Positions 1-46,155 of a DNA stretch of 64,000 nt are shown one piece after another (position 1 is the first letter of the stretch; each line of letters begins with the position of its first letter). The stretch covers positions 2,436 through 66,435 of the forward strand of contig JAIFWN010000003.1 in the NCBI GenBank assembly GCA_019658995.1, written 5' to 3'. A program made the translations under genes and the position numbers. The notes beneath the pieces are model-generated. The model saw only the letters and a program-made list of their open reading frames with translations, did no database searches and was not told where the DNA came from. This DNA is from Candidatus Parcubacteria bacterium. Its GTDB lineage: Bacteria > Patescibacteriota > Minisyncoccia > Phycocordibacterales > Zambryskibacteraceae.

Positions 1-525
1 CTCTTCGGTAATACCCTTTATGCGGGCATTATTGTTCTGAAATTTCCCAGCCTTGAGACTGTAGAGGTGGTAACCGCCAAAACCGAAACCAATTTTCCTT
101 ATATCCCCGGCCTTCTCTCCTTCCGTGAGATACCGGCGCTGCTTAAATGCGTGGAGAAACTTTCAACAAAGCCCGACGTCTTTATGGTAGATGGGCAGGG
201 TATAGCTCACCCAAGGCGCTTGGGAATTGCCTCGCATCTGGGCGTTGAGCTCGGTATACCAACCATCGGTGTAGGGAAGAGCGTTCTCTACGGTAAGACT
301 GAGGGAGAGAGGCTCATAGATCCCAAAAGCTGTGAAATCATCGGTTCGGTTATAAAGACCAAGCCTAGGACAAATCCCCTGATAGTCTCCCCCGGACATC
401 TCATAACTCTCGAGGAATCCGTGGAAATAGTCCGGAATACCTTGAGTGGTTATAAGCTTCCGGAACCTACCAGGAGAGCACACAGCTTGGTAAACGATTT
501 TCGGAAAGGAATTATTAATAGTTAA
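1..525 (+). CDS. nfi: Endonuclease V (deoxyinosine 3' endonuclease), 5'-partial at window edge
   Basis: Frame 1 is open from nt 1. Translation has conserved endonuclease V segments (GQGIAHPRRLGIASHLGVELGIPTIGVGKS). The N-terminus lies upstream of the window. Confidence 0.8.
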   Translation, partial: LFGNTLYAGIIVLKFPSLETVEVVTAKTETNFPYIPGLLSFREIPALLKCVEKLSTKPDVFMVDGQGIAHPRRLGIASHLGVELGIPTIGVGKSVLYGKTEGERLIDPKSCEIIGSVIKTKPRTNPLIVSPGHLITLEESVEIVRNTLSGYKLPEPTRRAHSLVNDFRKGIINS

Positions 526-30200: not shown

Positions 30201-33200
30201 CAAATCTCTTCTCTTCAGTTTTGACAGTCGGTAGCAATGCGCTCTTAGTTAACTCAAGCGGCTTTGTAGGCATTGCTACCACTTCGCCATTTGCCAGGCT
30301 TTCGGTAATGCTCAATGCCGGAGATACTAATACCACCGTTTTCGCAATCGGTTCCACCACTGCTACGGGCTTTACAAATCTCTTGAGAGTGGACAATCAA
30401 GGTTCAACTACAGTTAAGACCCTGCGTTTCGACGATACCGGTGCCAACAACCTTTTCTGGACGATACGGGAGGAGTCAGGCAATAACCTGGAAATTTTCT
30501 ATCCCTCGATTCGTCGTGGCGTGTTTGTTAACGCTGGCAATGGAGGCTTTCTCGGAATTGGTACTACCTCAATGCAGGGCTTCTCGTCATTCATCGTTGC
30601 CTCGGCTACCCCGACTATGGAGATTATGGACAACAACGGTCCTGTGGATCTGAAGCACTGGCTCATAAGCGCGGATGCCGGGAAATTCTTCATAGGCAGA
30701 GCGACGGATGACCTTTTATCAACTACCACTTACTTCTTCGTTGACGGCAATATGGGCGGCAATATAGGTCTCAATGAGGCATCACCGAACTTCAGACTCG
30801 AGGCGACAGGTACCAGCGGCAGCGGCTACTTCGGTATTACCAACGCCTCTGACGGCGACGTATTCAGCATTATCTCCACCGGTAATGTGGGAGTCAATGA
30901 TGCCACCCCGGACTTTAAGTTCGAGAGTAACGGCTCGAACGCGAGCGGCTACTTCGGCATCACTAACTCGAGTGATGGAGATATCTTTGCGATAGACGGG
31001 AGCGGAGAAGTGGGCATCGGCATAGTGAATCCGTCATACGCTCTCCATATAGTGGATGATACGAACGAGACGCTCGCCATTGAAACCATTCACACAACCG
31101 GTACATCTCTTGTAATCAAGAACACCAGCGGCGGCGGACACTCCTTTTCTCTCACCAGTACGGGCTCCGACGGCTCGCCAGGCAACTTCGTCATTAGAGA
31201 CAATACGGCGAACTTTACCGGCTTTGATCTTGCCGGAGCCACCGGCAACCTGCAGATTACGCGCGATGCCTACTTCGGCTGGTCATCGAACGCAAGCGAT
31301 GCAAAGGTTGCGGCCGATACTATACTCTCGCGCATCTCTGCCGGGGTTGTTGGCACGGCAAATCTTATACTCTCCGGCAATTCGACCACGTCGCAGGCTA
31401 CTACCACGAACTTCTTCTCGGCAACTATCTTCTCTGATCTTCTAAACAACTCCGGTTTGGCCACACTCGGCAATATGCTTGTTCTCGGCTCGTCCACTCT
31501 CCAGAATTTCACATTCGGCAACGCCACTGGCTCTCAAGCCACCACGACGAACCTTTTCTCGACTAAGGGTAGCTTCACCACTATCTGCTTCACCGGAGAT
31601 GTTTGCCGAACGTCATGGCCATCGACTGGCGGAGGCGGGGGATCAGACACCAATTGGCAATTCTTTAATAATTCTGGCATCCGGCTTGCTACGACTACCA
31701 ACCAGGTTCTCATTGGCGCTTCGGCTACCACATCTCTCGCTAACCTCGAGATCGCCTTCCAGACAGCAGCCGGAGGATCTCTGTATGCTCTTGGCTCCAC
31801 CACCCTTAATAATTTCGCCTTTGCTAACTCAACCGGATCTCAAGCAACTACTACCAACCTATTCTCCACCAATATCTTCAGTACGACAGGAAACGTCTCA
31901 GGCACTCAAACAGCGGGGAATTTGCTCGCCCTCGGATCTTCAACCCTTCAGAACTTCACATTTAGGAACGCTACTGGGAGTGATGCGACTACAACAAATT
32001 TCCGTGTTTCTAATAGAGCAAATATCGTGGATCTCACGGTTGGTAGTATAGAGGGCCTTAATTCAGCATCCTTTAATGTTACAGATGATGCCTCGGGTAT
32101 ATTCGAAGTCAATTCAGCGTCAGTAGGAGATGTATTCACTGTGAATGATTTTGGAACCCCCTATTTTTCAAGGAATCTCGGACTTGGCACATCGACGCCG
32201 TCTGCCAACCTGACGATACAGGATCCCAATCCAGAAATAAATTTCTATGAAAGTAATAACTTCGCCAAAACCAGGCTGGTTCAGCTTGGCGATTCGGAAT
32301 TCGATATCGTTATGTATGACGGTTCGGGTGTTGTCACAAACGCTCTCAATATGAATTTCAACGGCGAAAACGAATACCTTTCCGGTATGTCTGGAACACT
32401 CGGCAGCAATGCAAGCGCTCGGCATGTGTTCTACATCTCACAAAGTGAAGTTGGGGGATTCGATTACAGAGGACTTTTCTCTATTGGTAGTACTAAAACA
32501 AGCGGTGGAACAGCTGTGGCGGCACTCGATGTGACTGGAAACGGTTACATAAGCGGCAAGCTAGGAGTAGGTACAACTACTCCGTATGCAGGCCTCCAAA
32601 TAGCCACATCTACAAGGCCGCAACTCATACTTACGGATATTCTGGCCGGACCTAATGTCAAACATTTCTATGCATCTTCTACGAACGGCCGTCTTGCCAT
32701 AGGCAATCTAAGCGATAATCTCGGATCCTTTACCGATATCATGGACTTGAGCTCGACAGCGATAAACTTCACGCTTGGCAGCGAGGAAAATAAAAGTTTC
32801 AATATCAAAGATGGCCCCGGGCTAACCACTCTCTTTTCGGTTGATAACGATACCAAGACAGTGGGTATCGGGACCACTACGCCCGGAGCTAAATTAGAAG
32901 TGGCCAAAACCTCTTCTGGAGCTACCTCAGATGCTCTCTTCCTTTCCAACCAGGCCTCCGCAACCAATACAGCTACCCGCCTCTCCTTCAGAGCCCAGGA
33001 TATAAAGAATATTGCTACCACTACAGCTTCAATCGTCGGTTTATTGGGTAAGAATTTCGATCAAGCTACCTCAACCCTGATCTTCTCCACACAAAATGCC
33101 GGCACCCTCACCGAGCAAATGCGATTAACTGACACAGGCCTCCTGCTGATCGGATCAACTACACTGCAAAATTTTACATTCAGAAATGCTACCGGCACCT

Positions 33201-35455
33201 CGGCTACAACCACCAACTTCTTCGCTACGAACGCTTCAACCACTAACTTTTTCGCTAACGTAATAAGTTCAGGTCTTATCAATGGCCAGACAATATCAAG
33301 CGCTGCGAACTTCACAGGCACTCTCAATGTCACAAGCGGTCAGACAACCGTATCAAATCTTTTGGCGACGGGATCCAGCACCCTCCAGAACTTCACTTTT
33401 GTTAATGCTACTGGCACTTCGGCTACAACCACCAACTTCTTCGCTACAAATGCTTCCACGACTAACCTCTTCTACGCCAACGCTGTCGGAGGAGCGGAGA
33501 CCCTGAGTGGATTGCTGACGGCTGCCAATATCCGATCGAACGGCTCGTCCACCCTCCAGAACTTCACATTTGTAAATGCGACGGGTTCCCAGGCTACGAC
33601 TACAAATTTGTTCTCAACTAACTTATTTGGCACGACAGGCAACTTCTCTGGTCTCTTAACTCTCGGAAATCTTTTGCTCACAGGCTCTTCGACCTTCCTG
33701 AATCTAACTTTTGTTAATGCTACCGGCACTTCCGCCACAACTACAAATCTCTTTGCCACCACGCTCTTCTCAACCACTCATAACAACTCGGGTCTGATCA
33801 CTACAGGCAATCTCCTGGCATCAGGCTCTTCAACTTTGCAGAGTTTTACAGCAATTAATTCGACAACATCACAGGCTACCTCGACCAATTTCTTCTCAAC
33901 GAATATCTTCGGCACAACAGGAAATATTTCTGGACTCTCGACTTTCGGCAATCTCCTTGTGTCCGGGTCGAGCACGCTTCAAAACCTCACCTTCTCCAAT
34001 GCGACGGGCTCGCAAGCTACCACAACAAATATCTTCTCCACTAACATCTTCGGCACGACTGGAAATGTTTCCGGTCTGGCTACTTTGGGTAACCTCCTCG
34101 TCTCCGGCTCCTCCACTCTTCAGAACTTCACTTTCGTTAATGCTACCGGCACTTCCGCTACAACAACAAACTTCTTCGCTACGAATGCTTCTACTACCAA
34201 TCTCTTCTTCACGACCAGCAGGGGAGGATCGGAGACCCTCACTGCCACTCTCACCGCCAATAATCTTCTTGCTAACGCTTCTTCCACTCTCCAAAACTTC
34301 ACATTTGTTAACGCCACAGGCTCACAAGCGACGACAACGAATCTGTTTGCAACCAATCTTTTTGGCACTACGGGAAATATATCGGGTACGCAGACAGTGG
34401 GGAATTTACTCTCGCTAGGCTCATCAACCTTACAAAACTTCACATTCTCTAACGCCACAGGCACTTCAGCGACCACAACCAACTTCTTTGCTACCAATGC
34501 TTCGACCACAAACTTCTGGGCAAACGTTATATCTTCTGGTCTTATCAATGGCCAAACCATTACCTCTGCAGCCAACTTCACCGGAACTCTTAATGTTACA
34601 AGCGGACAAACTACACTCTCAAATCTTCTTGTTACTGGGTCTTCAACCCTCCAGAACTTCACCTTCATAAACGCGACGGGTTCCCAGGCTACTACAACAA
34701 ATTTATTTGCCACAACTCTATTCTCAACAACACACAATAATTCGGGTCTTGGTATATTTGGCAATATTCTGTCCCTTGGCTCATCTACTCTTCAGAATTT
34801 CACGTTTGCTAATGCTACCGGTTCCCAGGCGACAACAACCAGTCTTTTTGCGACGAAAGCAGACTTTACAACTCTATGTATAGCTCAGGATTGTAAAACA
34901 GCCTGGCCTACGTCCGGAGGAGCTTCCACTGATAAGTTTGCAACTTCAACAAACGGATTGGCAATTTATCCGAACAGCGCCGCGGCAGTAGTGATAGGCG
35001 GCAGTGCCACAACCACAACCGGAGCAGAGCTCGAAGTACTCGGGGATATCTATGTTTCTGGTTCCTCAACCCTTCAGAACTTTACCTTCATAAACGCCAC
35101 AGGAACTTCAGCGACCACTACTAATTTATTTAGTACTACGGCTTCTTCTACAAACCTCTTCGCTACTGCTATCCAAGCCGGTACGGCCACATTCAATAAT
35201 ATTCTTGGGAACAGCTCCTCCACTCTCCAAAACTTCACCTTCGTCAACGCTACGGGTACATCGGCCACCACCACCAATTTCTTCGCTACCAACGCCTCTA
35301 CTACCAACTTCTTCTTTACCACATCGAACGGCGGCAACGAGACCCTTACTGCTCGAACTTCACATTCATCAACGCCACTGGCTCCCAGGCTACGACCAGT
35401 AACCTATTCAGTACGAATATATTTGGTACCACCGGCAATTTGTCTGGACTCCTGA
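27212..35455 (+). CDS. Giant repeat-rich surface protein, N-terminal segment (2747 aa), most likely one gene with 35440..41061
   Basis: TTG start. N-terminal hydrophobic helix (LHLIFTFFLTAILIYLGG). Then dozens of diverged ~40-45-aa repeats (GSSTLQNFTFxNATG[ST]xATTTN[LF]F[AS]T) and three Cys-pair/DVDWxFFNNTGxRLxTTTNQVLIG modules. Ends in frame-shifted repeat sequence. Confidence 0.7.
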   Translation: MKKHSSLHLIFTFFLTAILIYLGGSPPAVMSAGGVPSIISYQGRLADSAGNLLGSSSGTTYFFAFSIWDNATVGSGTKLWPVATTSVPTTVKSGVFNVNIGDTAGGYPDTLNYTFTSPNIFLQVDVSSNGTTWETVSPRQRLSSAVFAQVAEAVVGASSTVTTLTNTNFYGTFATTTSATTTNLFANFLNSATVTASGLGTFGNFLALGSTTLQNFTALNSTTTNATTTNIYVNGKLYGANLTNCNSNADKLLWANGLFSCGTDGGGGGSDVDWLFFNNTGIRLGTTTNQVLIGFNATSSLAMLELNVQAGKIPLFIGSSTELFKIDDYGLVSAKNLLLDSSTTLQNFTFVSATGSQATTTNLFTNTLFSTTASSTNLFANTATFGTLVAASFNPANITTGNLLVTGSSTLQNFTFINATGSQATTTNFFSTGIFSTILNNSGLATLGNILSSGSSTLQNFTFINATGTSATTTNFFSINASTTNLWANVISSGLINGQTITSAANFTGTLNATGGLTTLSNLLVAGSSTLQNFTFANATGSQATTTYFFSTNLFGTNGNLTNLIFSLATGTSATTTNFFSTTASSTNLFATTLNTGNITSTALATLANLLVSGSSTLQNFTFVNATGSQATTTNLFSANLFGTTGFLTNLQLNGSSTLQNFTFSNATGTSATTTNFFATNASTTNLWANIISSGLINGQNITSAANFTGTLNATGGLTTLSNLLISGSSTLQNFTFVNATGTSASTTNFFAINASTSNLFANSLTVGNITSIQETITNLLALGSSTLQNFTGLNSTTTNATTTRLAIISLNCGTFTNNGKLTTNADGTVSCSDDIAATQDVDWIFFNNTGVRLATTTNQVLIGASATSSLANLEISFQTAAKGSLLTLGSSTLQNFTFITATGTAATTTNFFGTNIFSTILNNSGLATLGNLLVLGSSTLQDFTFVNATGSQATTTSLFSANVFGTNANLTNLIFSLATGTSATTTNLFSGISSSTNLFSSVLTVGSNALLVNSSGFVGIATTSPFARLSVMLNAGDTNTTVFAIGSTTATGFTNLLRVDNQGSTTVKTLRFDDTGANNLFWTIREESGNNLEIFYPSIRRGVFVNAGNGGFLGIGTTSMQGFSSFIVASATPTMEIMDNNGPVDLKHWLISADAGKFFIGRATDDLLSTTTYFFVDGNMGGNIGLNEASPNFRLEATGTSGSGYFGITNASDGDVFSIISTGNVGVNDATPDFKFESNGSNASGYFGITNSSDGDIFAIDGSGEVGIGIVNPSYALHIVDDTNETLAIETIHTTGTSLVIKNTSGGGHSFSLTSTGSDGSPGNFVIRDNTANFTGFDLAGATGNLQITRDAYFGWSSNASDAKVAADTILSRISAGVVGTANLILSGNSTTSQATTTNFFSATIFSDLLNNSGLATLGNMLVLGSSTLQNFTFGNATGSQATTTNLFSTKGSFTTICFTGDVCRTSWPSTGGGGGSDTNWQFFNNSGIRLATTTNQVLIGASATTSLANLEIAFQTAAGGSLYALGSTTLNNFAFANSTGSQATTTNLFSTNIFSTTGNVSGTQTAGNLLALGSSTLQNFTFRNATGSDATTTNFRVSNRANIVDLTVGSIEGLNSASFNVTDDASGIFEVNSASVGDVFTVNDFGTPYFSRNLGLGTSTPSANLTIQDPNPEINFYESNNFAKTRLVQLGDSEFDIVMYDGSGVVTNALNMNFNGENEYLSGMSGTLGSNASARHVFYISQSEVGGFDYRGLFSIGSTKTSGGTAVAALDVTGNGYISGKLGVGTTTPYAGLQIATSTRPQLILTDILAGPNVKHFYASSTNGRLAIGNLSDNLGSFTDIMDLSSTAINFTLGSEENKSFNIKDGPGLTTLFSVDNDTKTVGIGTTTPGAKLEVAKTSSGATSDALFLSNQASATNTATRLSFRAQDIKNIATTTASIVGLLGKNFDQATSTLIFSTQNAGTLTEQMRLTDTGLLLIGSTTLQNFTFRNATGTSATTTNFFATNASTTNFFANVISSGLINGQTISSAANFTGTLNVTSGQTTVSNLLATGSSTLQNFTFVNATGTSATTTNFFATNASTTNLFYANAVGGAETLSGLLTAANIRSNGSSTLQNFTFVNATGSQATTTNLFSTNLFGTTGNFSGLLTLGNLLLTGSSTFLNLTFVNATGTSATTTNLFATTLFSTTHNNSGLITTGNLLASGSSTLQSFTAINSTTSQATSTNFFSTNIFGTTGNISGLSTFGNLLVSGSSTLQNLTFSNATGSQATTTNIFSTNIFGTTGNVSGLATLGNLLVSGSSTLQNFTFVNATGTSATTTNFFATNASTTNLFFTTSRGGSETLTATLTANNLLANASSTLQNFTFVNATGSQATTTNLFATNLFGTTGNISGTQTVGNLLSLGSSTLQNFTFSNATGTSATTTNFFATNASTTNFWANVISSGLINGQTITSAANFTGTLNVTSGQTTLSNLLVTGSSTLQNFTFINATGSQATTTNLFATTLFSTTHNNSGLGIFGNILSLGSSTLQNFTFANATGSQATTTSLFATKADFTTLCIAQDCKTAWPTSGGASTDKFATSTNGLAIYPNSAAAVVIGGSATTTTGAELEVLGDIYVSGSSTLQNFTFINATGTSATTTNLFSTTASSTNLFATAIQAGTATFNNILGNSSSTLQNFTFVNATGTSATTTNFFATNASTTNFFFTTSNGGNETLTARTSHSSTPLAPRLRPVTYSVRIYLVPPAICLDS

Positions 35456-35800
35456 CTCTCGGCAATCTTTTGCTTACTGGTTCCTCCACTCTCCAAAACT
35501 TCACCTTCGTTAATGCTACCGGTACTTCCGCTACAACAACAAACTTCTTCGCTACAAATGCTTCCACAACCAATCTCTTTGCCACAGCTATACAAGCCGG
35601 TACCGCAACGTTTAACACCATTCTCGCCAATGCTTCCTCCACTCTCCAAAACTTCACCTTCGTCAACGCTACGGGTACATCGGCCACCACCACCAATTTC
35701 TTCGCTACCAACGCCTCTACTACCAACTTCTTCTTTACCACATCGAACGGCGGCAACGAGACCCTTACTGCTCGTACCAATGCCACAACCACAGGGACTC
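27660..35800 (+). repeat. Coding tandem repeat array, about 135-bp (45-codon) diverged units
   Basis: Recurrent GGNTCNTCNACNCTNCAGAAYTTCACNTTC cores at irregular ~120-140 bp spacing. Units differ at DNA level except one exact 140-bp duplicate. Confidence 0.8.
35216..35774 (+). repeat. Exact 140-bp direct duplication (35216..35355 and 35635..35774), 419-bp period, spanning the ORF break
   Basis: The two blocks match at every base by line-by-line comparison. The 419-nt period makes the copies fall in different frames. Confidence 0.9.
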
Positions 35801-38800
35801 TCAATGTGAACGGGCTCCAGTTTGCGGACAACGGAGCCAACAACCGATACTGGACGATCACCGAAGATGCAGGCAATAATCTTCAGATTTCCTACCCTGT
35901 AGCTACCGATGTCCGTATCAATCAGAACTTCCTGGTCAGTGGCTCTACCACTCTTCAGAATTTCACATCGCTCAACGCTACCACTGCTCAGGCCACTACT
36001 ACAGCCCTGGCTATAAGCAGTCTTAATTGTTCTTCGGGCGCACAGCTCCTCCAGACAAACTCATCAGGCAGCGTAATCTGCGGTACGGACGATGGCGGTG
36101 CCGGCAGTACGCCTGGGGGTAATGCCGGAGCAGTACAGTTCAACGACGGTGCAAGCGGCTTCACCGGCAACGAAAACTATCTGTTCTTCAGTAATGCCAA
36201 TAAACTCTTTGGTATCGGAAGCTCCACTCCGACTGCTATTTTATCGGCGTCGAGTACGACTGCGCTGCTTCCGGTAGCAATCTTTGATCAGCGCAGTACG
36301 GGAGGGCTTCTTACTCTCCAGCGTTCGGGAGTGGACAAGTTCACAGTCAGTAACGACGGCGGACTCAATATTTATGGCGCAACTTCCGATTCTGTCAAAA
36401 CCACTACGGGCACCGGCAAATCATCTGACTTCGACTTTACCGGTTCCACTATCGCAACCGCCAGCACTACCGCAACAAACGGTTATGTGACTATCATTGA
36501 CGGCACGATCTCCGGAGACGGTATAGTTTCCGCAACCACTACTACGACCGGTACGGTCATAGGAAACGGCGCCCAGGTTATCATTCGCTCCGACGGGCAA
36601 TATGTGATTATCCAAGGAGGTGGTACGGCAACAGCTTCTATCTGGGACGGATTCAAGAGTGGTTCCGGTGCAGCAAGCATGGCAACCACTACCATCGCTA
36701 CCGGCGGTACGGTTAACACAGGCGCTATAGCTGTCAAGCGCCCAGACGGCAGATATGTCATCTTCCACGGAGGTGCCGCTAACTTGAGTTCGATATTTGA
36801 TCCTTACAACATAACAGCAGCGGTAGCCGGTCCGCCTCCGGGAGGAGCTTGTACGACCGGTACTAACGCATTTCTGCGTCCCGACGGCAAGTATGTAGTC
36901 ATATGCGGAGGAACTACGGGATGGGGAGTATATGATCCGTCTCAGGCTCCTCCGGGCTCACTTACTGCCGGTACCGCCATAGGCGGCAACTGGGGGGCTG
37001 GCGCACACGCACTCTCAAGAGATGACGGAACCTTCCTTGTTTATCAGGGAGGTGGATCCAATACCTTTATTTACAATCCGTTCACCAATACCATGACAGC
37101 GGGTCCTACTGCGCCCGCCGCTATTGCCGCCGGTGCTTTATCTGTTCGGAGGCAGGACGGCACATTCCTTACTCTTCCGGGAGCGGCCAATACTTCCTAT
37201 TCCTATAATCCGGTAAGCACTACAACGCCGAACGGGCAGGGAGCCTTCGTTACCAATTTCGGAGTCGGACCTTCATCATCACTCTCTGACGGCTCGACAA
37301 TACTCTGGAGACAAGACGGGAAGTACACTCTGATTACCGCCAATACTACCGTGTTAAACGTGGTAGATCCCGGTTCCGGATCTATTGTTCCTAAGTTTAC
37401 CAATCCGGGCGCACCCCTAGCTCTTTCCGGGAATGCCGGAGCGGGTATCACTGCCTTTATGCTGCCGAACGGCAGGTACGCCATACTGCGCGGCGGCGGC
37501 CAAGCCATTGATACTTACGACATGAACTTCGCTACCGGTTTATCGAGCGGCAATGTTCAAAATTCATACTACGAAAGCGAATGTATAGATAACACCAATT
37601 TGTCCTTGGACTCGACTCTGAACTGGAACAAAAATGACGAAGGCACTATCTCGGCCCAAATAAGAACTGTAACCAGTCCTCAGGACTGCTCGACGGCGAC
37701 ATACCGCACCATACAATCTAGCGGCAGTCTCATTGGTGCCACCACTACGGCCAACAACAGGGTCCAGTTCAAATTCTTCTTCCAGCGCGAACTTCCGAGA
37801 TTCCTCGACCAGGAGTGGGGTGTGCGTAAGACCGCGCAGACCAGATACCGCCGCGTCAACGCCGACCCGGTCCTCTATGATGTAACGGTAGACAACTCCA
37901 CATCACTCCATAGAACGCAGTTCGACTTTGGCAATGCCGTATCCTCTACTACGGCACCATCTTCAGGACCGGTAGCGGTTAACATTACCAATGACACAAA
38001 CCGCAACAACGCCTTAGCTCTGGCTGCAGGCGTCGGCTACGGCACTACCATTAACACTGCGAATAACGGCTATTACAACGGAGCTTTTGGCTTTGCCCAG
38101 CCGCTTTCAACACCGACAGCATCCACCACCGTGGTAATGAAGCGCCCCGATGGCAAGTTCACTATCATTGCCGGTAACAATACGATCAACTCCAATGTTT
38201 ATGACCCGGCACTGGCTACCTCTACTGCCGCCACTGCCGCAGCCAATAAACCTACGGTACAAATAGGCAATGGCGCATTGGCCTTCAAGCGTCCCGATGG
38301 CAAGTTCCTGATAGTCATGGGTAACACGAGCAGTACCACGGTCTCCTCCGTTGGTGCTACTACTACGAACATTTATGATCCGGTTACCGACACGTACGTT
38401 GCCGGACCGAATCTGGCAACCGGCGGAAGCAGTAACGGTGCCGGTGCCGGCGCGGCTGTCATTCCTCTCCCTAGCGGCAGGGTACTCATCATTCATGGCA
38501 ATGCTACCAACGCTACTTCTGTATATGATCCGGTACAGAACACCATGACTGCCGGACCGAATCCTACGGCTGTAGTAGGTTACGGTTCAATAGTGATTCC
38601 TCGTCCTAACGGCCAGTATATGTTCATACCCGGTATGGTCTCGCTTACCTCTTGTACGGTGAACACCACAGTTAACCTCTTCGATCCATATGCCATGGTG
38701 TTTACTACAAATGCTGGTGTGGCTAATGCAGGCGGCACAGGACCGGGAGCCTTTGCATTACAAAGGAGTGACGGCACATGGCTCATAGTTCGTGGAGGTG

Positions 38801-41061
38801 CATCAACCGGTTGTCTCGGTACGGGCACTACTGCTATCTATGATCCAGTCTCCCATCTGTCCACTATTACCGGTCCTGGTTTATCAACAAATGTCGGCCT
38901 TGGAGCTTACGCTCTGCCTCGTCCTGACGGCACATGGCTTCTTGTAAATGGCGGCGGCGGAGTATCACTCGCCGGTCAGAGTGCTACACAAATATATATA
39001 GAACGAGGTGGAGGGTTAACCGCTACCGGTGACCAGTCAACAATTGGCGCATTTATCTCTGGTCCGACGATGAACGTGGCGGCAAATAGCGGAGGTACGG
39101 CCTTTCAGCTTCCTGACGGCAAGTTCGCCATCATAACGGGAGCTGCGACTACCACTACATCCAACAGTATGCAGTTCTACGATGCAGGATGGGTAGCGAG
39201 TGGCATATACAGGTCTGAGCAATTTGACCTCTCTCCAGTGGGGACGAAGCTCGATTCCAACTCAACTCTTAACTGGAAGTCGAACATGATATCATCCGCT
39301 GTGGGCGGTATCTCCGCCGAAGTAAGGAGCGCTCCCACACAAGCTGCTCTGGCAACGAGTACTACGAGGGAGATACCGATATCGGGCGGACTCATCAATC
39401 CGGCCGCCACCGACACCTGGCTCCAGATAAACTTCAACTTCAGGAGAAGCTTCCCATCTTACGGAGGTATATACAGCGACGTATGGTACTCTTCCGCATC
39501 TATGAGCTATCCACTTCGTCCTGTTGTTACTCCGACTTTGTATGAATTTAAGATAACAAAAGATGATGATCTTTTGACTCTTAACGCCGATGGCTTGGCG
39601 CTCTTCAGAGTCAACTCTGGCGGAGACGTCTATACATCGACAGGAGGCACCATCAACACCTCCGGCGCAGACCTTGCCGAGCGCTATACCTCGCAAGAGC
39701 CTCTCGACTTCGGCGAAGTGGTCTCGGTCGATCCGATGAATAATCATGCGGTCAAGAAAACTTCTTACCAATATCAGCCCGATGCACTCGGTGTGGTCTC
39801 GACCGATCCGGGCTTCGTGGCGGGCGCTTATACTGAAGATTCTTATCCAATAGCTCTTGTCGGCCGCGTGCCGGTAAAGGTTTCGACGGAAAACGGCTTC
39901 ATCCGCGCCGGCGACAAGCTCACAGCAGCGAGCGTCCCTGGCTATGCCATGAAGGCTACTCTTGCCGGACATGTTATCGGCCACGCACTCGAGAATCTTA
40001 AGAGCGATAAGCTTGTAGACTGCCCGGCAAGCAGTATCGTCATACCCGGCAGGAAGTGCGGAGTTGTGATGATGTTCGTCAGCCTTGGGGATTTCATAGG
40101 AGAACCGGTTGGCGATGCCATGATGGAGTACAACAGTTTGCACAATATAGATATTTCGAGCTTTGCTACTACATCTGTGATGCTCGGCGATGAAGCTATA
40201 GGCATTGTACCGGGTACGAGGGAAGCCAACGTATTGAACTTCCTAGAAAACCTGAGGAAGGATAGGGAAGCCGGCTCTTCTTACCGCTCCGAAGTATTTG
40301 CCGATAGAGTATCGGCTGTTTCAGACATTATCGCGCCAAACATTTTTACCCGTATTCTCAAGGCTGAAAGTGTGGAAGGACTGACATTTAAAAGCGATAA
40401 GGTCATTGCCAATGCTTTGGTAGTAAATAGCATCGGTGCTGAGGGCACGACCACGCTAGCTCTTATGGGTGATGTGAACTTCTTCGGTCGACCTTACTTT
40501 ACTTCGGACACTGCTGGCAGTGCCATCATAAAGAAGGGCGCTAAAACAGTGGAGATCATCTTCGACAAGGAGTACATCGATACGCCGATAGTGAGTTCCA
40601 CTATCGCTCTTGAGTCGGCTTCGACGAGCGAAGCACAGGAAGAAGAGATATTCACTCAAGATATCCGCTTCATAGTCTCAAGAAAGAGTGTTCACGGCTT
40701 TACCATAATCTTGAACAAGCCGGCTCCAAACGACATCGGCTTCAGCTGGATAGCTCTGGCGGTGAAGGACTCAAAACTCTTCACCTCAAGAGAAATACCG
40801 CTTGCCGAGACTACTCCGATCACCGCAGTTGTAGAATCTGTGCCTCCTCCGCCAACAACTCCGCCAGTCTCAAATGAGCCGACTTCTACAACCACTATGC
40901 CAGTTGAGGCAACAAGCACTCCATCTATGATAGAAACCACGCCTACAACTACTCCTTCCGTATTACCATCTGAACCAGAATTAACTCCCCAAGTCGAGCC
41001 CGAATCAACACCTATAGTTGATGTTTCTCCATCTGAACCATCCCCGCAAAGCGGGCCATAA
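35440..41061 (+). CDS. Giant surface protein, C-terminal segment (1873 aa): repeats, Kelch-like propeller blades, C-terminal globular region, Pro/Thr-rich tail
   Basis: The track starts at a TTG inside continuing repeat sequence. About 12 blade-like units of pattern [RK]xDG[KT][FYW]hhhxGG ... YDP. Ends with a P/T/S/E-rich low-complexity tail. Confidence 0.7.
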   Translation: MSGLLTLGNLLLTGSSTLQNFTFVNATGTSATTTNFFATNASTTNLFATAIQAGTATFNTILANASSTLQNFTFVNATGTSATTTNFFATNASTTNFFFTTSNGGNETLTARTNATTTGTLNVNGLQFADNGANNRYWTITEDAGNNLQISYPVATDVRINQNFLVSGSTTLQNFTSLNATTAQATTTALAISSLNCSSGAQLLQTNSSGSVICGTDDGGAGSTPGGNAGAVQFNDGASGFTGNENYLFFSNANKLFGIGSSTPTAILSASSTTALLPVAIFDQRSTGGLLTLQRSGVDKFTVSNDGGLNIYGATSDSVKTTTGTGKSSDFDFTGSTIATASTTATNGYVTIIDGTISGDGIVSATTTTTGTVIGNGAQVIIRSDGQYVIIQGGGTATASIWDGFKSGSGAASMATTTIATGGTVNTGAIAVKRPDGRYVIFHGGAANLSSIFDPYNITAAVAGPPPGGACTTGTNAFLRPDGKYVVICGGTTGWGVYDPSQAPPGSLTAGTAIGGNWGAGAHALSRDDGTFLVYQGGGSNTFIYNPFTNTMTAGPTAPAAIAAGALSVRRQDGTFLTLPGAANTSYSYNPVSTTTPNGQGAFVTNFGVGPSSSLSDGSTILWRQDGKYTLITANTTVLNVVDPGSGSIVPKFTNPGAPLALSGNAGAGITAFMLPNGRYAILRGGGQAIDTYDMNFATGLSSGNVQNSYYESECIDNTNLSLDSTLNWNKNDEGTISAQIRTVTSPQDCSTATYRTIQSSGSLIGATTTANNRVQFKFFFQRELPRFLDQEWGVRKTAQTRYRRVNADPVLYDVTVDNSTSLHRTQFDFGNAVSSTTAPSSGPVAVNITNDTNRNNALALAAGVGYGTTINTANNGYYNGAFGFAQPLSTPTASTTVVMKRPDGKFTIIAGNNTINSNVYDPALATSTAATAAANKPTVQIGNGALAFKRPDGKFLIVMGNTSSTTVSSVGATTTNIYDPVTDTYVAGPNLATGGSSNGAGAGAAVIPLPSGRVLIIHGNATNATSVYDPVQNTMTAGPNPTAVVGYGSIVIPRPNGQYMFIPGMVSLTSCTVNTTVNLFDPYAMVFTTNAGVANAGGTGPGAFALQRSDGTWLIVRGGASTGCLGTGTTAIYDPVSHLSTITGPGLSTNVGLGAYALPRPDGTWLLVNGGGGVSLAGQSATQIYIERGGGLTATGDQSTIGAFISGPTMNVAANSGGTAFQLPDGKFAIITGAATTTTSNSMQFYDAGWVASGIYRSEQFDLSPVGTKLDSNSTLNWKSNMISSAVGGISAEVRSAPTQAALATSTTREIPISGGLINPAATDTWLQINFNFRRSFPSYGGIYSDVWYSSASMSYPLRPVVTPTLYEFKITKDDDLLTLNADGLALFRVNSGGDVYTSTGGTINTSGADLAERYTSQEPLDFGEVVSVDPMNNHAVKKTSYQYQPDALGVVSTDPGFVAGAYTEDSYPIALVGRVPVKVSTENGFIRAGDKLTAASVPGYAMKATLAGHVIGHALENLKSDKLVDCPASSIVIPGRKCGVVMMFVSLGDFIGEPVGDAMMEYNSLHNIDISSFATTSVMLGDEAIGIVPGTREANVLNFLENLRKDREAGSSYRSEVFADRVSAVSDIIAPNIFTRILKAESVEGLTFKSDKVIANALVVNSIGAEGTTTLALMGDVNFFGRPYFTSDTAGSAIIKKGAKTVEIIFDKEYIDTPIVSSTIALESASTSEAQEEEIFTQDIRFIVSRKSVHGFTIILNKPAPNDIGFSWIALAVKDSKLFTSREIPLAETTPITAVVESVPPPPTTPPVSNEPTSTTTMPVEATSTPSMIETTPTTTPSVLPSEPELTPQVEPESTPIVDVSPSEPSPQSGP

Positions 41062-41069
41062 AATAAAAT

Positions 41070-41471
41070 ATGACAAAAAAATATAAACTTGCTTTAAGTG
41101 TTGCTCTAGTTTTGGTGATGGGCGTGTTTGTTGGAGTAGGGATCGTAAAGGCGACTGGAAGTAACCAAATAACCACTTTTAATTTAATAGGGGATAATAA
41201 GTTCAAATTTCATGTAGTTAGCTTCGATTGCTCTACATCTACTGACGAAACTTTCACATTACCTACAACCGTTCAGAATAACGGAGTGATTCAAGTAGTA
41301 AAAACAGATTCAACCTCTTGCTCTGGTAGAAAGATAACTCTCCTACCATCTTCGGGAGATATGATTGAAGGCGGACCCGAATATGTTATTTTTTCTGGTA
41401 CAGGTTCTGCAGTTACATTTGTTGCTGACGGAGCAAATAGAAATTGGTGGGCAATTAGTAGCTATAGATAG
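41070..41471 (+). CDS. Small secreted hypothetical protein
   Basis: 133 aa with signal/anchor helix (LALSVALVLVMGVFVGVGIV) and a Cys-containing beta-rich domain. Confidence 0.45.
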   Translation: MTKKYKLALSVALVLVMGVFVGVGIVKATGSNQITTFNLIGDNKFKFHVVSFDCSTSTDETFTLPTTVQNNGVIQVVKTDSTSCSGRKITLLPSSGDMIEGGPEYVIFSGTGSAVTFVADGANRNWWAISSYR

Positions 41472-41523: not shown

Positions 41524-41919
41524 ATGGAAAATTTGAAGCAGGAATTCAAGAGTCTGTCTAAGAAGTTAAGAATGGTATTTCTGGCAGTTCTGACAGTCGG
41601 GATCCTTAGCTTAATCTCAACGGCCGTATTGGCAGAGAAGCTCCAGAAGGCTTCGGATCCGGCTCTGGCTGCGCAGGAAGAGATACAGAAGGTCGTGGCT
41701 GAAGTGGGAAGGTTCATAATCCTGCCTGACGATGAGACCCCAACCATGGCAACTGTCTCGGACCCCTCGAAGCTTAGCGGCCAGCCGTTCTTCGAAAATG
41801 CGGAAGCTGGTGATAAGGTTCTCATCTATACCATATCCAGGAAGGCTATACTCTGGAGACCGTCTACAAAGAAAATAATCGAGGTAGCCTCTATCAATGT
41901 CACTTCTCCAGCACAATAA
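41524..41919 (+). CDS. Membrane-anchored hypothetical protein
   Basis: 131 aa, N-terminal coiled segment plus TM helix; TATAAT 8 nt upstream. Confidence 0.45.
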   Translation: MENLKQEFKSLSKKLRMVFLAVLTVGILSLISTAVLAEKLQKASDPALAAQEEIQKVVAEVGRFIILPDDETPTMATVSDPSKLSGQPFFENAEAGDKVLIYTISRKAILWRPSTKKIIEVASINVTSPAQ

Positions 41920-43243
41920 CAGAGCACTTAAGGTTCTCATTCTCTCTTTCGTCTTTGCCGGAATATTTTCCACAGCTAGGGCGCAAAACTTCTCTTCCGG
42001 CGGCTATTCCGTACTCGCTCCAGTTATCGCTCCCGGCGGACACTCTACCTCCCCAAGCTACTCTCTCATAAGCGTAATATCCCAGCTTGCCATAGGCACT
42101 TCATCGGCAACCGCTTTTAATCTATCAAGCGGTTTCCTGTATTATCCCTTCATAACCACGCCTATTCTCGCGGCCACTCCGGGTAATGCGCAGGTAGTGC
42201 TCAATTGGACGGCTGCCGACGGTGTGCTTGGCTGGTCGGTCGGCTCGTACTCGGTGGGACAAACTGTTACGGCGGGCAGTGATTACTCATACACTAATGT
42301 CGGCAATGTACTCACCTCGACTCGTACAGGACTTTCCAATGGCACTACTTACTACTTTATAATCCGGGTCATCGACGCGGCTGGCAATACAGTAGCTACT
42401 TCGACTGAAGTCTTTGCTATGCCCGTCGCTCCGGCTGGCGGAGGAGGTGGAGGCGGGGGCGGAGGTGGCGGAGGAGGTGGAGGCGGGGGCGGAGGATACA
42501 CTGGCGGTGGTACTGGGAGCGGCAGAGTGAACTTCTCAGGACGGGCCTATCCGCGAAGTACGGTGACGGTTCTTAAGGACGCACAAGTTGTCATTACTAC
42601 CGTGGCTGATGCTGCAGCCAACTTCGCAGTCTCACTTATGAACCTCTCGGGAGGTAATTACTTCTTCTCATTATATAGCGAAGACAACAATGGCGTGCGC
42701 AGCAGTCTCCTGACCTTTCCGGTTTCCGTTACCGATGGCTCTACCATGAATATCGGAGGCATCTTCATCACTCCGACCATTGCCGTAGACAAAAGCGAAG
42801 TCAAAAGGGGAGACAATATCTCTATCTTTGGCCAGACGGCCGCCCAGAGTGATGTCACGATCCAGGTTAACTCCGACGAGCCCTTCTTCGCCAAAACCAA
42901 GGCTGATGCCTCCGGTGGCTATCTCTATAATTTCGACACGGTGCCACTTGAGTATGGCGACCACAGCACCAAATCCAAGAGCGCTTTGTCGGGTGAGATC
43001 AGCTCATTCAGCTCCGTTGCCGCCTTCAAAGTCGGCACACAGAACGTGCTTATAGGCAACTTGCCGAAGACTTGCAATAAAAAGGGCGATACCAACAAGG
43101 ACTGCAAGGTTAACCTTGTGGACTTCTCTATAGTAGCCTTCTGGTACAAGCGCCCCAATCCGCCGGCCAATGTCGATCTGAACGGCGATAAAAAAGTGGA
43201 CCTCATAGACTTTTCCATACTGGCTTATAACTGGACCGGATGA
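41897..43243 (+). CDS. Secreted FN3-like/Ig-like protein with C-terminal dockerin-type tandem Ca-binding repeats
   Basis: Signal peptide, FN3-like segment (PGNAQVVLNWTA ... TTYYF), 40-residue Gly tract, Ig-like region. C-terminal duplicated dockerin type I segments GDTNKDCKVNLVDFSIVAFWY and DLNGDKKVDLIDFSILAYNW. Confidence 0.65.
   Translation: MSLLQHNNRALKVLILSFVFAGIFSTARAQNFSSGGYSVLAPVIAPGGHSTSPSYSLISVISQLAIGTSSATAFNLSSGFLYYPFITTPILAATPGNAQVVLNWTAADGVLGWSVGSYSVGQTVTAGSDYSYTNVGNVLTSTRTGLSNGTTYYFIIRVIDAAGNTVATSTEVFAMPVAPAGGGGGGGGGGGGGGGGGGGGYTGGGTGSGRVNFSGRAYPRSTVTVLKDAQVVITTVADAAANFAVSLMNLSGGNYFFSLYSEDNNGVRSSLLTFPVSVTDGSTMNIGGIFITPTIAVDKSEVKRGDNISIFGQTAAQSDVTIQVNSDEPFFAKTKADASGGYLYNFDTVPLEYGDHSTKSKSALSGEISSFSSVAAFKVGTQNVLIGNLPKTCNKKGDTNKDCKVNLVDFSIVAFWYKRPNPPANVDLNGDKKVDLIDFSILAYNWTG
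42431..42490 (+). repeat. Tandem 30-bp x2 GGN repeat encoding the poly-Gly linker
   Basis: GGCGGAGGAGGTGGAGGCGGGGGCGGAGGT is repeated twice head-to-tail. Confidence 0.9.
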
Positions 43244-44010
43244 TGAAATACCCAATATATATAGCATCTCTTATGCTTCTGCTCCCTGTGACTCTCTCCG
43301 CAGCTACGGCTGTTATAGAAGTTGATACGATATCGGAATCCGTGAACGCACTCGAAGCTACTGTCCGGATCCCTTTAGGTATGGAAGTTAAAGAAGTCCG
43401 AAGCGGTGATTCGGTAATAGTCTTTTGGATCACTCCGCCTACGCTGTCGACATCGACAAATTCCATTTCCTTTGCCGGATTTACTCCGGGCGGGTTCAAG
43501 GGCAAACGGACGGTCTTCTCTGTTGTCGGTGAGTTCGACAAGAGCGATCTCTCCGGCATAACATTCAGCGCGGTGCAGGCGCTTAAGAACGACGGTGAGG
43601 GCACGTCTGCCTCGGTCAGGCTTAGCGCCTCTCTTTCAGAATCGGTAGAGGATACCATCGTGCCGGAAACATTTGCTCCTCTTCTGTCGCGATCCGACGA
43701 TGTCTATGCCGGCCGGCTGTTCGTTTCCTTCTCGGCTCTCGATAAGAATACCGGTGTAGCCAAGTTTGAGGTAGCCGAGACCTTCTTCGGCCGACCTGAT
43801 GACGAGGACTGGGTGGAGGCCGCAAGTCCGTATGAAGTCAAAGACAATCTGCTCTTGAAGAGAGTTTATATAAAAGCTACTGACCATAAGGGCAATTACA
43901 GAGTAGAGTCTGTTTCTCTGCCGTACAGGCTCCCCGCAGAGATTTTCCTTGCTATAATTATTGGAGCGTTATGTATACTCGCTCTTCGCTATTCAAAGCG
44001 CTCTTCGTAA
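43240..44010 (+). CDS. Cohesin-like domain surface protein with C-terminal TM anchor
   Basis: Signal peptide; ~140-aa beta-sandwich (VNALEATVRIPLGMEVKEVRSGDSVI ... ISFAGFTPGGFKGKRTVFSVVGEF ... ITFSAVQALKNDGEGT); C-terminal TM helix. Start overlaps the dockerin gene stop by 4 nt (ATGA). Confidence 0.5.
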   Translation: MMKYPIYIASLMLLLPVTLSAATAVIEVDTISESVNALEATVRIPLGMEVKEVRSGDSVIVFWITPPTLSTSTNSISFAGFTPGGFKGKRTVFSVVGEFDKSDLSGITFSAVQALKNDGEGTSASVRLSASLSESVEDTIVPETFAPLLSRSDDVYAGRLFVSFSALDKNTGVAKFEVAETFFGRPDDEDWVEAASPYEVKDNLLLKRVYIKATDHKGNYRVESVSLPYRLPAEIFLAIIIGALCILALRYSKRSS

Positions 44011-45728
44011 TAATCTTCTTCGTCGCGCCGGTTCTGGCCAGTGCCGCTACGCTCTTCATTTCGCCGGAATCAGATTCATACGCTGCGGGAAAAACTTTCT
44101 CTATAAGAGTCAGGGTTTCTTCGCCTCAGGCTATCAATGCGGTATCGGGATCTCTCACCTTTCCGACGGACAAGCTGCAGGTTACATCGGTTTCTAAAAC
44201 CGGCTCGATACTGACTCTGTGGGTTGCCGATCCTTCATACTCCAACTCTGATGGCAAGGTGAGCTTCGAAGGTGTTGTACCTAACCCGGGATGGAGCGGT
44301 ACGGGTGGAACTGTCGCTACCGTCAGCTTCCGCGTAGTCGGATCAGGCTCCGCCAAGGTTTCCTATACGGCCGCATCGGTCCTGGCAAACGATGGCAATG
44401 GTACAGAGCTCTGCTACAATTGCGGTCTCTCAGCGACATACACCCTAGGCGGAGCTCCAGCTCCGGTAGTCCCGGCTGAGGAAGTCGAGCCTTCGGGTAC
44501 TCCCGGCGCTCCCAATATCACTTCGTCTTCGCACCCGGTGCAGAGCAAATGGTATGGGGAGGAAGATGCCAAGTTCTCCTGGACGAACGAGCCGGGCGTG
44601 ACGGCAACCAGAGTGCTTCTGGGAAAGAGCGCCAATTCCACTCCGACCGCGGAGTACACTCCGCCCATAACTAATAGGGAGATAGACAATATCGAAGATG
44701 GCATATGGTATTTCCACGTACAGAACAAGAATAGTAAAGGTTGGGGTTCGACCGCCCACTACATGATCAAGGTCGATACCACTGATCCTGACTCATTTGT
44801 AATGAAAGAGGTGGCGCGTCCCGATGATACCGATCCGAGAGTCAGACTGTCGCTCTCTGCCTCCGACGATACCTCGGGTATAAAGTCCTTCGGCATTCAA
44901 GTGGACAAGGGTGAGATGCAAGACTGGGTCGAAGACGGTACCGGCATATATGTGACAGATCCTCTGCCGCCGGGCGAGCATACAATTTTTGCCAGAGCTT
45001 ATGACGAGGCGGGGAACTTCGCTACGGCTTCGGTTAATGTGGAGGTGAAGGGAATCCCGGCACCCAAGATCACTTCGTATACCGACAAGATTTCCGGATC
45101 GGCGCCAATCATTGTAAGAGGTACAGCTTTGCCAAACTCGATAGTTAGAGTCACTCTTACTAAGGGCGGATCTCTCGGCGGGATCTTCGGCTCCGACTCC
45201 GGAGAAATATCACCGTTTACCAAGGATACCAAATCCGATGACTCCGGCGATTTCTCACTTTCTCTGGATACCAAGGGCATGGAGAGCGGAGCATACGACT
45301 TGACCGCCATAGCTATAGACCGTCGAGGCGCCCAAAGCGAGCCGACCGCACCGAAGACCGTGCTCATCAACGCCGGATGGCTCCGCTCTATAGGTTCGAC
45401 GATCCTTACCGTCCTGGCCATAGCGGTGCCAGTGCTTGCACTCCTCTTCCTCCTCTTTATCATATTCATGAGGGGTTTCCATACCGTGAGGATGACCAAC
45501 AGGAAGTTCAGGGCCGAACTTCATAATATAGAGCATCTGGTCGATCAATCCTTCGTCCTTCTCAAGGAAGACGTCGAGGACTCTATCAGGCTATTAGAGA
45601 AGACGAAGTCGAGGAGGAAATTGACCGAGGAGGAGGAGGCTATAATTGATAGGCTCAGACAGAATCTCCGCGATGCCGAGAAGGTCATACACGGTCAGGT
45701 GAGAAGAATAGAGAAAGAAATTGGCTAA
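43971..45728 (+). CDS. Cohesin-domain surface protein with Ig-like domains, TM anchor and cytoplasmic coiled-coil tail
   Basis: N-terminal domain matches cohesin consensus features (AGKTFSIRVRVSSPQAINAVSGSLTFPTDKLQVTSVSKTGSIL ... GKVSFEGV ... GTVATVSFRVVGSGSAKVSYTAASVLANDGNGTEL). Later Ig/FN3-like segments, one TM helix near residue 480, charged coiled-coil C-terminus. Confidence 0.6.
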   Translation: MYTRSSLFKALFVIIFFVAPVLASAATLFISPESDSYAAGKTFSIRVRVSSPQAINAVSGSLTFPTDKLQVTSVSKTGSILTLWVADPSYSNSDGKVSFEGVVPNPGWSGTGGTVATVSFRVVGSGSAKVSYTAASVLANDGNGTELCYNCGLSATYTLGGAPAPVVPAEEVEPSGTPGAPNITSSSHPVQSKWYGEEDAKFSWTNEPGVTATRVLLGKSANSTPTAEYTPPITNREIDNIEDGIWYFHVQNKNSKGWGSTAHYMIKVDTTDPDSFVMKEVARPDDTDPRVRLSLSASDDTSGIKSFGIQVDKGEMQDWVEDGTGIYVTDPLPPGEHTIFARAYDEAGNFATASVNVEVKGIPAPKITSYTDKISGSAPIIVRGTALPNSIVRVTLTKGGSLGGIFGSDSGEISPFTKDTKSDDSGDFSLSLDTKGMESGAYDLTAIAIDRRGAQSEPTAPKTVLINAGWLRSIGSTILTVLAIAVPVLALLFLLFIIFMRGFHTVRMTNRKFRAELHNIEHLVDQSFVLLKEDVEDSIRLLEKTKSRRKLTEEEEAIIDRLRQNLRDAEKVIHGQVRRIEKEIG

Positions 45729-45740
45729 AACTAAAACACA

Positions 45741-46112
45741 ATGACAGAACTTAATCCAAAACTTACCGAAGACGAAAAGGAAGTAATGTTTGCCAAAGGC
45801 ACTGAAGCTCCTTTCACCGGCGCTTATGTCCATACCAAGGACAAGGGTACATATATCTGCAAAAATTGCGGAGCGGAATTATTCAAATCCGATGCCAAAT
45901 TTGATTCCGGCACCGGCTGGCCCTCCTTCGACAATCCGGCCAACACGCAAAATGTAGTACTCGAGCCAGACAACTCCCATGACATGCACAGGACAGAGGT
46001 GAAGTGCGCGCACTGCGGAGCGCATCTCGGACATGTCTTCGATGACGGGCCGACTACGACAGGGAAGCGCTACTGCATCAACTCGGTTTGCCTGGATCTG
46101 AAAAAGGAGTAA
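45741..46112 (+). CDS. msrB: Peptide methionine-R-sulfoxide reductase MsrB
   Basis: Two CxxC pairs (CKNCGAEL, CAHCGAHLGHVF) and the GTGWPSF motif. Confidence 0.85.
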   Translation: MTELNPKLTEDEKEVMFAKGTEAPFTGAYVHTKDKGTYICKNCGAELFKSDAKFDSGTGWPSFDNPANTQNVVLEPDNSHDMHRTEVKCAHCGAHLGHVFDDGPTTTGKRYCINSVCLDLKKE

Positions 46113-46126
46113 TTCACAGAGTTGAC

Positions 46127-46155
46127 TTGACAAGAAAAGCGGGTTGGAATATAAT
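46127..46155 (+). promoter_or_regulatory. Consensus sigma70-type promoter TTGACA-17-TATAAT upstream of the RRM gene
   Basis: TTGACA at 46127-46132, 17-nt spacer, TATAAT at 46150-46155. That leaves a ~105-nt leader before the ATG at 46264. Confidence 0.5.

Follow-up and report, generated by a model that had tools for sequence, protein, structure and literature searches.

A dockerin-cohesin gene trio as a probable cell-envelope anchoring module of Patescibacteria

In Ruminococcus flavefaciens, the adhesin CttA is held on the type III cohesin of ScaE by way of an X-dockerin, and this arrangement is the nearest functional analogue of the genes described here. The type I and type II pairs of Clostridium thermocellum (SdbA, OlpB, Orf2p and OlpA/OlpC) anchor enzyme-loaded scaffoldins to the wall through surface-layer homology (SLH) domains, and the cohesins of Clostridium perfringens (cohesin-FN3 of the GH84C protein NagJ, and the GH33 sialidase) sit on glycoside hydrolases. 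We analysed a stretch of 64,000 nucleotides (nt) from contig JAIFWN010000003.1 of a Candidatus Parcubacteria metagenome-assembled genome (GCA_019658995.1; hereafter the window), which encodes a trio of adjacent genes, A, B and C. Protein A ends in a dockerin, and B and C begin with cohesin-like domains. Unlike the C. thermocellum systems, the trio is without enzymes, carbohydrate-binding modules (CBMs) or SLH domains, and unlike the C. perfringens proteins its cohesins are membrane-anchored and carry no enzymes. We propose that A-B-C is probably a conserved cell-envelope anchoring module of the Patescibacteria, or candidate phyla radiation (CPR), built on a non-cellulosomal cohesin-dockerin joint. 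A large part of bacterial diversity belongs to the CPR, whose members apparently live attached to host cells, and little is known of how they secure their pili and giant surface proteins.

The C-terminus of A is a genuine dockerin. The tandem segments that a sequence-only reading of this DNA had pointed out there indeed contain two 12-residue Ca loops, each followed by a predicted helix. Loop 1 reads D398-T-N-K-D-C-K-V-N-L-V-D409 and loop 2 reads D427-L-N-G-D-K-K-V-D-L-I-D438, both with Asp or Asn at positions 1, 3, 5, 9 and 12. The Pfam model Dockerin_1 (PF00404) matches amino acids (aa) 396-442 with 25.2 bits (gathering cutoff 22.9, E=1.9e-5), and it individually matches 62 of 65 A orthologues. 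Among 65-69 A orthologues from other genomes, D398, D402, D409, D431 and D438 are invariant, and N400, N406 and N429 are conserved in at least 90%. When a profile of the family's last 64 residues was compared with PDB sequences, the best matches were 2y3n_B (E=2.2e-7), 5nrm_B (7e-6) and 1daq_A (7e-5), and every one of the top 11 was either an isolated dockerin module or a cellulosomal enzyme that carries a dockerin. Searches of PDB sequences with A, B and C as single queries returned only poly-Gly linker artefacts and noise. The AlphaFold2 model of A (56-sequence alignment) gives the dockerin a predicted local distance difference test score (pLDDT) of ~88-95, with helices at 407-415 and 436-444. 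Some A orthologues already carry the NCBI name "dockerin type I repeat-containing protein".

A cysteine pair accompanies this module (C390 and C403; 43064..43105, KTCNKKGDTNKDC), placed ~8 residues before Ca loop 1 and at loop position 6. The family consensus of 56 sequences (K-C-x-x-K-G-D-L-N-x-D-C) likewise has Cys at both positions, and the pair may form a disulfide clasp that stabilises the dockerin.

Cohesin domains of ~140 aa had been claimed for both B and C. In C the claim holds: the AlphaFold2 model (60-sequence alignment, mean pLDDT 87.9) has an N-terminal beta-domain at aa 25-162 with the cohesin-type beta-sandwich fold of ~140 aa, and its closest structural match is the non-cellulosomal Archaeoglobus fulgidus cohesin 2xdh. 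The Pfam Cohesin model (PF00963) is matched by 27 of 60 full-length C orthologues (best E=1.1e-10) and by 9 of 72 B orthologues. On this structural and family evidence, cohesin identity is therefore settled for C. The domain of B is shorter than claimed (~110 aa). Alignment of the B family with the C family by hhalign (probability 100%, E=1.3e-42) pairs the N-terminal domain of B with the C cohesin and the second domain of B with the Big_13 domain of C. By these family alignments B is a paralogue of C, and homology of its first domain to the C cohesin is certain.

Hydropathy profiles show signal-like N-terminal segments in A, B and C. The transmembrane (TM) anchors previously described for B and C are present by hydrophobicity (aa 227-253 and 470-508, respectively), as is the cytoplasmic tail of C, which is ~80 aa long, helical (AlphaFold helices 470-548 and 553-584) and marked by the conserved motif LLE.TK.+R.LT.EE. 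Because B and C combine a signal-like N-terminus with a C-terminal TM helix, the cohesin should form the membrane-distal tip of each protein. A conserved motif of the C cohesin is LANDGxGT. With the C cohesin profile, the region around it (residues ~117-160 of C) gave a weak, non-significant match (E=0.62) to PDB entry 9rwu_A, a 210-aa "Pilus assembly protein" chain, which is possibly meaningful given the pilus context described below.

A six-frame translation of the whole 64 kb, scanned with hidden Markov models (HMMs) of the trio families, contains a single dockerin (E=2e-34) and a pair of cohesin-like domains (E=2e-43 and E=2e-30); all other matches have E>1. The occurrence of these three domains together in 64 kb is far beyond chance.

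The trio is widely conserved. In a scan using one genome per species, relatives of C were found in at least 584 species genomes across the Patescibacteria. Titles among the matches listed include Parcubacteria/Paceibacterota, Magasanik-, Uhr-, Wolfe-, Portnoy-, Colwell-, Jorgensen-, Komeili-, Dojka-, Wildermuth-, Campbell- and Doudnabacteria, and Microgenomates. Mislabelling or mis-binning is presumed for the few titles that name other phyla, given that one "Gammaproteobacteria" record consists of just one contig of 876 kb. A C profile searched against 1.84 billion cluster representatives (50% identity) gave 5,518 matches at E<=1e-30, a count that takes in long repeat-rich proteins matching several times. 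The best 150 of the 5,518 are mostly full-length proteins of ~570-600 aa, and the rest of these are long repeat-rich proteins and B-C fusions. The fusions (866-901 aa) have the TM helix of B followed by the signal segment of C, a hairpin that would keep both ectodomains outside. Among 67 loci with enough upstream DNA, B lies directly 5' of C in 63 and A directly 5' of B in 61, and the A-B-C order is kept in 61 of the 67, from many CPR lineages. A-B-C is thus a widely conserved module of Patescibacteria, tied to pili or giant proteins, and its scope had been underestimated by the sequence-only reading.

Two gene sets recur upstream of the trio. The first, found in the window and ~15 other loci, consists of a giant protein homologous to the open reading frame (ORF) at 35440..41061, a 131-aa protein and A-B-C. 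Giant homologues lie 5' of the trio in 15 loci, and the 131-aa protein is kept at its position in 14 giant-variant loci. The second set (~40 loci) opens with between one and three "fibre" genes, continues with a gene whose product combines a signal peptide, a beta-sandwich and a C-terminal TM helix, and ends in A-B-C. These signal peptide-TM proteins are putatively chaperone-like.

Many of the fibre genes belong to the Pam pilus, a CPR filament assembled by donor-strand exchange (Troman et al., bioRxiv 10.64898/2026.03.03.709456). In the published model, the chaperones are PapD-like and membrane-anchored, and the proposed anchor, PamR, puts an N-terminal strand into the last pilin; the PamR of the Ca. 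Mycosynbacter amalyticus pam operon has two FnIII domains and a TM helix (bioRxiv 10.64898/2026.03.03.709456). Cohesin and dockerin are nowhere mentioned in that work (Troman et al., bioRxiv 10.64898/2026.03.03.709456). We found the Pam pilin model NF058581 (CPR_Pam_pilin_C) in 20 of 62 ORFs (best E=2.6e-46) and PamT (NF058579) in 15 of the 62; the 354-aa fibre protein of locus L007, for example, scores 81.8 bits against a cutoff of 55 for NF058581. Pam-type pilins lie directly 5' of the trio in 16 loci, 13 of which also have the putative chaperone-like protein. In the window, our own HMM (best E=1.8) found no Pam pilin, and NCBIfam gave nothing on the neighbouring ORFs. The window differs from Pam loci in holding a giant gene in the pilin position. 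On the question of equivalents of PamR or PamC/D, there is a faint match to WxLIP_PGBD (E=0.09).

Other fibre genes may belong to a second, non-Pam type of filament served by the same trio. The fibre proteins of loci L001 (2624..4759) and L003 (3878..5344) have an N-terminal TM helix followed by G-W-x-Q-V-W-x-N-P-x-F-P-P-K, and that of L001 (DUF2341 and LamG domains) weakly matches TafC-family fimbrial proteins (E=3e-7).

The N-terminal head of A appears to be matched to the upstream cargo. Heads of the type found in the window (type 2) occur with giant and 131-aa genes in 16 of 19 cases, and Cys-rich or other heads with fibre and putative chaperone-like genes in 40 of 45. Both arrangements are found among genomes labelled Magasanikbacteria (L001 and L033 versus L031, L076 and L086), with the caveat that some taxon labels in record titles are unreliable. 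Since the head co-varies with the upstream set, the two immunoglobulin-like (Ig) domains and dockerin of A, together with B and C, can be regarded as a constant chassis. In Pam loci, 12 of 13 A proteins have a strand motif, V.[IV][ST]A.V, that occurs in 77 of 935 background ORFs and closely resembles the linker (donor) strand of pilins of the same genome. One of the 12 matches is inside the signal peptide, and that A protein has a similar strand after it. Other A proteins of the second gene set start with a similar strand, ATIKI.[IV]CG. The N-terminal strand of A in Pam loci is thus like the strand proposed for PamR.

That the dockerin of A binds the cohesins of the trio is likely, judging from their strict co-occurrence. 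Rates and distance matrices for 64 trios, an exploratory comparison, bear on the choice of partner. The slowest-evolving parts are the dockerin (63% mean pairwise identity), the C cohesin (56%) and the Ig pair of A (54%); the B cohesin (35%), the C stalk (37%) and the C tail (34%) are faster. Distance-matrix rho values are 0.70 for the Ig pair of A versus the C cohesin, 0.48 for the dockerin versus the C cohesin, and 0.42 for the C cohesin versus the rest of C. The rates and rho values together indicate C as the main partner, and the Ig domain beside the dockerin perhaps makes an X-module-like contribution.

We propose the following arrangement. B and C would be exported by Sec and held in the cytoplasmic membrane by their C-terminal TM helices, with the N-terminal cohesins atop beta-sandwich stalks (three stalk domains in C, one in B). 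The Ca-binding EF-hand-pair dockerin of secreted A, following the two Ig domains, would plug into the cohesin of C, with C more likely the main partner of A and B a second or alternative one. This joint would fasten A to the cell non-covalently. The poly-Gly linker and variable head of A would then project outward and couple to the surface structure encoded just 5'. In the window the cargo would be the giant secreted protein and the 131-aa membrane protein; in Pam lineages the donor-strand-like mature N-terminus of A could cap the pilus base. To the attachment of the A head to the upstream cargo we give slightly less than an even chance. A broader idea, that the trio is a general base-plate of CPR surface filaments, serving both Pam pili, by way of the N-terminal donor strand of A, and giant tail-fibre-like adhesins, by way of its type-2 head, and tying both to a membrane protein, is possible and, in our view, rather doubtful.

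Several observations weigh against parts of this proposal. Neither B nor C of the window matches PF00963 at E<=1, and profiles of full-length C and of its cohesin find no solved cohesin among PDB sequences; for this reason the cohesin claim is shaky on sequence alone, and the Pfam match suggested by the sequence-only reading is seen in orthologues but not in the window. Window B is without ~17 N-terminal residues of its domain, which align with the first two predicted strands of C. This truncation is common to the window and four close relatives, and most B orthologues are complete. The partial correlation of dockerin with C cohesin is only 0.16, and shared ancestry confounds both the distance-matrix correlations and the association of heads with cargo. 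Pfam and family HMM scans recognise no interaction module in the giant protein. The type-2 head of the window has no donor-strand motif and is poorly modelled, and as a result synteny is the sole tie between it and the giant protein. Even so, a non-cellulosomal cohesin-dockerin pairing that anchors surface proteins, as proposed by the sequence-only reading, is the best reading of the locus, with binding judged from strict co-occurrence; the outcome that would have spoken against it, an absence of dockerin and cohesin matches with unrelated folds, is not what we find.

Of the competing explanations, the most serious retains the joint and makes A its end-point, a small adhesin or envelope strut on B and C, with upstream genes that are only co-regulated. 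CttA on ScaE in R. flavefaciens is such a stand-alone adhesin and the closest known analogue. This idea fits the adhesin-like make-up of A itself, with its FN3 domain, pair of Ig domains and Cys-rich or type-2 head, and also the finding of no interaction module in the giant protein. However, the head type switches with the upstream genes, even within Magasanikbacteria-labelled genomes, and the mature N-terminus of A mimics a pilin donor strand in Pam loci. We consider it unlikely that A is the end-point.

A second explanation is that the dockerin and the cohesin-like domains bind other things (such as glycans of the host or the wall, or peptidoglycan), or that the dockerin is a Ca2+ stabiliser, and that the trio is simply three independent, co-expressed proteins. 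No partner is known for many of the dockerins and cohesins found outside cellulosomes, and the failure of window B and C to match the Pfam Cohesin model fits this view. It is at odds with the strict pattern of one dockerin and two cohesins in overlapped genes over hundreds of species, and with the fact that A and C are most conserved in the dockerin and the cohesin, respectively; we regard it as distinctly improbable.

B and C might instead be assembly factors, forming a membrane platform that chaperones or polymerises fibre subunits, with the C tail coupled to a cytoplasmic partner and A as initiator or terminator. The trio does share one gene string with pilins and putative membrane-anchored chaperone-like proteins, the cytoplasmic tail of C is conserved, and the missing N-terminal residues of window B recall strand-deficient donor-strand folds. 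However, most B proteins have a complete cohesin domain, the Pam model requires no machinery beyond its chaperones, and the trio is equally conserved beside giant single-chain proteins, for which no polymerisation is needed. This explanation is very improbable. A minimal cellulosome-like complex for polysaccharide degradation, to which only the domain names point, is effectively refuted by the lack of any enzyme: A, B, C and their neighbours have no glycoside hydrolase, CBM or other catalytic domain, each protein has one cohesin at most, a single dockerin protein occurs in 64 kb, and in each of the 65 orthologues the A head is made up of small modules that are not enzymes.

The preferred reading, an anchoring module on a dockerin-cohesin joint, is laid out by feature in Table 1. 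The three ORFs are present where the sequence-only reading placed them, as is the ATGA stop/start overlap of A and B at 43240 (...GGA TGA / ATG ATG AAA). We confirm the lack of a glycoside hydrolase noted there and extend it to enzyme domains of any kind in A, B and C. The reading frames of B and C also overlap, by 40 nt (43971..44010), and distant genomes show the same type of overlap. The trio is not directly downstream of the giant gene, as had been stated, given that two small ORFs (41070..41471 and 41524..41919) intervene. NCBI labels B, C and the 131-aa ORF "hypothetical protein" in all three cases.

Table 1. Coordinates in the window of the trio, its predicted domains and the genes upstream
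Feature	Position	Strand	Source or identifier
Giant secreted protein, candidate anchor cargo	27212..41061	+	ORFs 27212..35455, 35440..41061
133-aa ORF, N-terminal hydrophobic segment	41070..41471		
131-aa protein, N-terminal TM, directly 5' of A	41524..41919	+	KW796_01475
Gene A, putative secreted adaptor protein, 448 aa	41897..43243	+	ORF
A, N-terminal half: signal peptide 1-29; head 30-90; FN3 91-175; poly-Gly 180-207			Domain/structure prediction
Flexible poly-glycine linker of A, aa 180-207	42434..42517	+	pLDDT <50
A, C-terminal half: Ig (Big_6) domains 209-291 and 294-380; dockerin 396-448			
Dockerin module of A, aa 396-448	43082..43240	+	PF00404, AlphaFold2
Ca loop 1, D398-D409	43088..43123	+	
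Ca loop 2, D427-D438	43175..43210	+	
Gene B, membrane-anchored short paralogue of C, 256 aa	43240..44010	+	ORF; KW796_01485
B: signal peptide; cohesin-like aa 22-131; Big_13-like ~138-225; C-terminal TM 227-253			
Gene C, membrane-anchored long cohesin protein, 585 aa	43971..45728	+	ORF; KW796_01490
Cohesin domain of C, aa 25-162, membrane-distal tip	44043..44456	+	
C stalk: FN3-like 181-270, Big_13/OmpL47-type 273-360, Big_7 Ig 364-467	44511..45371	+	
C TM helix aa 470-508 and conserved cytoplasmic helical tail 509-585	45378..45725	+	

Between the giant gene and C, a scan for promoters and terminators gave no convincing internal signal. Further downstream, a perfect sigma-70 consensus (TTGACA-17-TATAAT) is present at 46127..46155, 5' of an RRM-type RNA-binding gene at 46264, and C is separated from an msrB-like gene (45741..46112) by a 12-nt gap. 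With the only perfect promoter at 46127 and so short a gap between C and msrB, a transcription unit that includes A-B-C and extends through msrB is suggested.

The linker of A includes a run of ~22 glycines, and poly-G is kept in the family consensus. Part of it is encoded by a near-perfect (29/30 nt) 30-nt tandem duplication of ggcggaggaggtggaggcgggggcggaggt at 42437..42496. Linker length varies among A orthologues, and the duplication is likely a hotspot for such variation. The type-2 head (41984..42166, aa 30-90) is conserved in sequence, with repeated S-x-N-F/Y strands and the ending G-F-x-Y-x-P. AlphaFold2 models it at a pLDDT of ~40, which would fit a segment that acquires its fold only when bound to a partner.

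The two giant ORFs (27212..35455, 2747 aa; 35440..41061, 1873 aa) probably represent a single gene of ~4,600 aa that a frameshift has divided. The frame of the second is open 5' of its TTG start, and a signal segment is found on the first ORF only. At the junction (~35380..35455) the last ~35 residues of the first ORF look out of frame, and a ~45-aa repeat (SSTLQNFTFVNATGTSATTTNFFATNAS...ETLTART) flanks the junction on both sides. Either an assembly error induced by the repeat or a genuine frameshift may account for the split. Searches of the giant protein against Pfam, PHROGs and the PDB were uninformative, with no Pfam domain, and family HMMs detect on it no dockerin, for which the sequence-only reading had thought it worth searching. 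We identified no family matches for the 131-aa protein or for the 133-aa ORF, and the latter is absent from the recurrent neighbour families of 80 related loci.

The trio is among the few widely conserved, lineage-typical envelope gene sets of CPR bacteria with a readable mechanism. It moves the cohesin-dockerin pair beyond the cellulosome and presents it as a candidate device for anchoring in general, linked to the Pam pilus and to giant genes. If the base-plate idea is true, the joint replaces a sortase, an usher or a TM pilin as the tie to the cell, and the conserved cytoplasmic coiled coil of C could pass force or signal inward. Dockerin-cohesin binding would then belong to the core of the envelope in Paceibacteria, ABY1 and Microgenomatia, nearly universal among them, and would account for the way in which these wall-poor episymbionts keep hold of their hosts. 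The trio could also yield compact orthogonal cohesin-dockerin pairs for protein engineering.

In the literature on dockerins or cohesins together with Patescibacteria, CPR or Parcubacteria, we found no account of the trio. It puts known modules into an architecture and a distribution that are new, with a probable role that is also new. The essential "dockerin" protein of Southlakia, SEML1_0315, was considered and set aside; it is a stand-alone protein of 927 aa with unrelated neighbours. The tables of the Southlakia study are without cohesin or dockerin entries (Wang et al., 2023; PMC10633639), and the Microsyncoccus transcriptome paper does not mention the A-B-C genes.

Several differences separate the trio from its nearest analogues. 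Sortase links ScaE to peptidoglycan, whereas B and C each have a TM helix, and C a cytoplasmic tail in addition. CttA binds cellulose, whereas the head of A is variable and tracks the upstream giant or pilus genes. The trio has a pair of paralogous cohesin anchors versus one in CttA-ScaE, and the phylum is a different one. Loop positions 10-11, which are Ser-Thr in type I dockerins of C. thermocellum, are Leu-Val and Leu-Ile in A. Relative to both CttA-ScaE and the Archaeoglobus cohesin 2xdh, the trio is distinguished by TM anchoring, a paralogous pair of anchors, a cytoplasmic tail, freedom from enzymes and a link to pili or giant genes.

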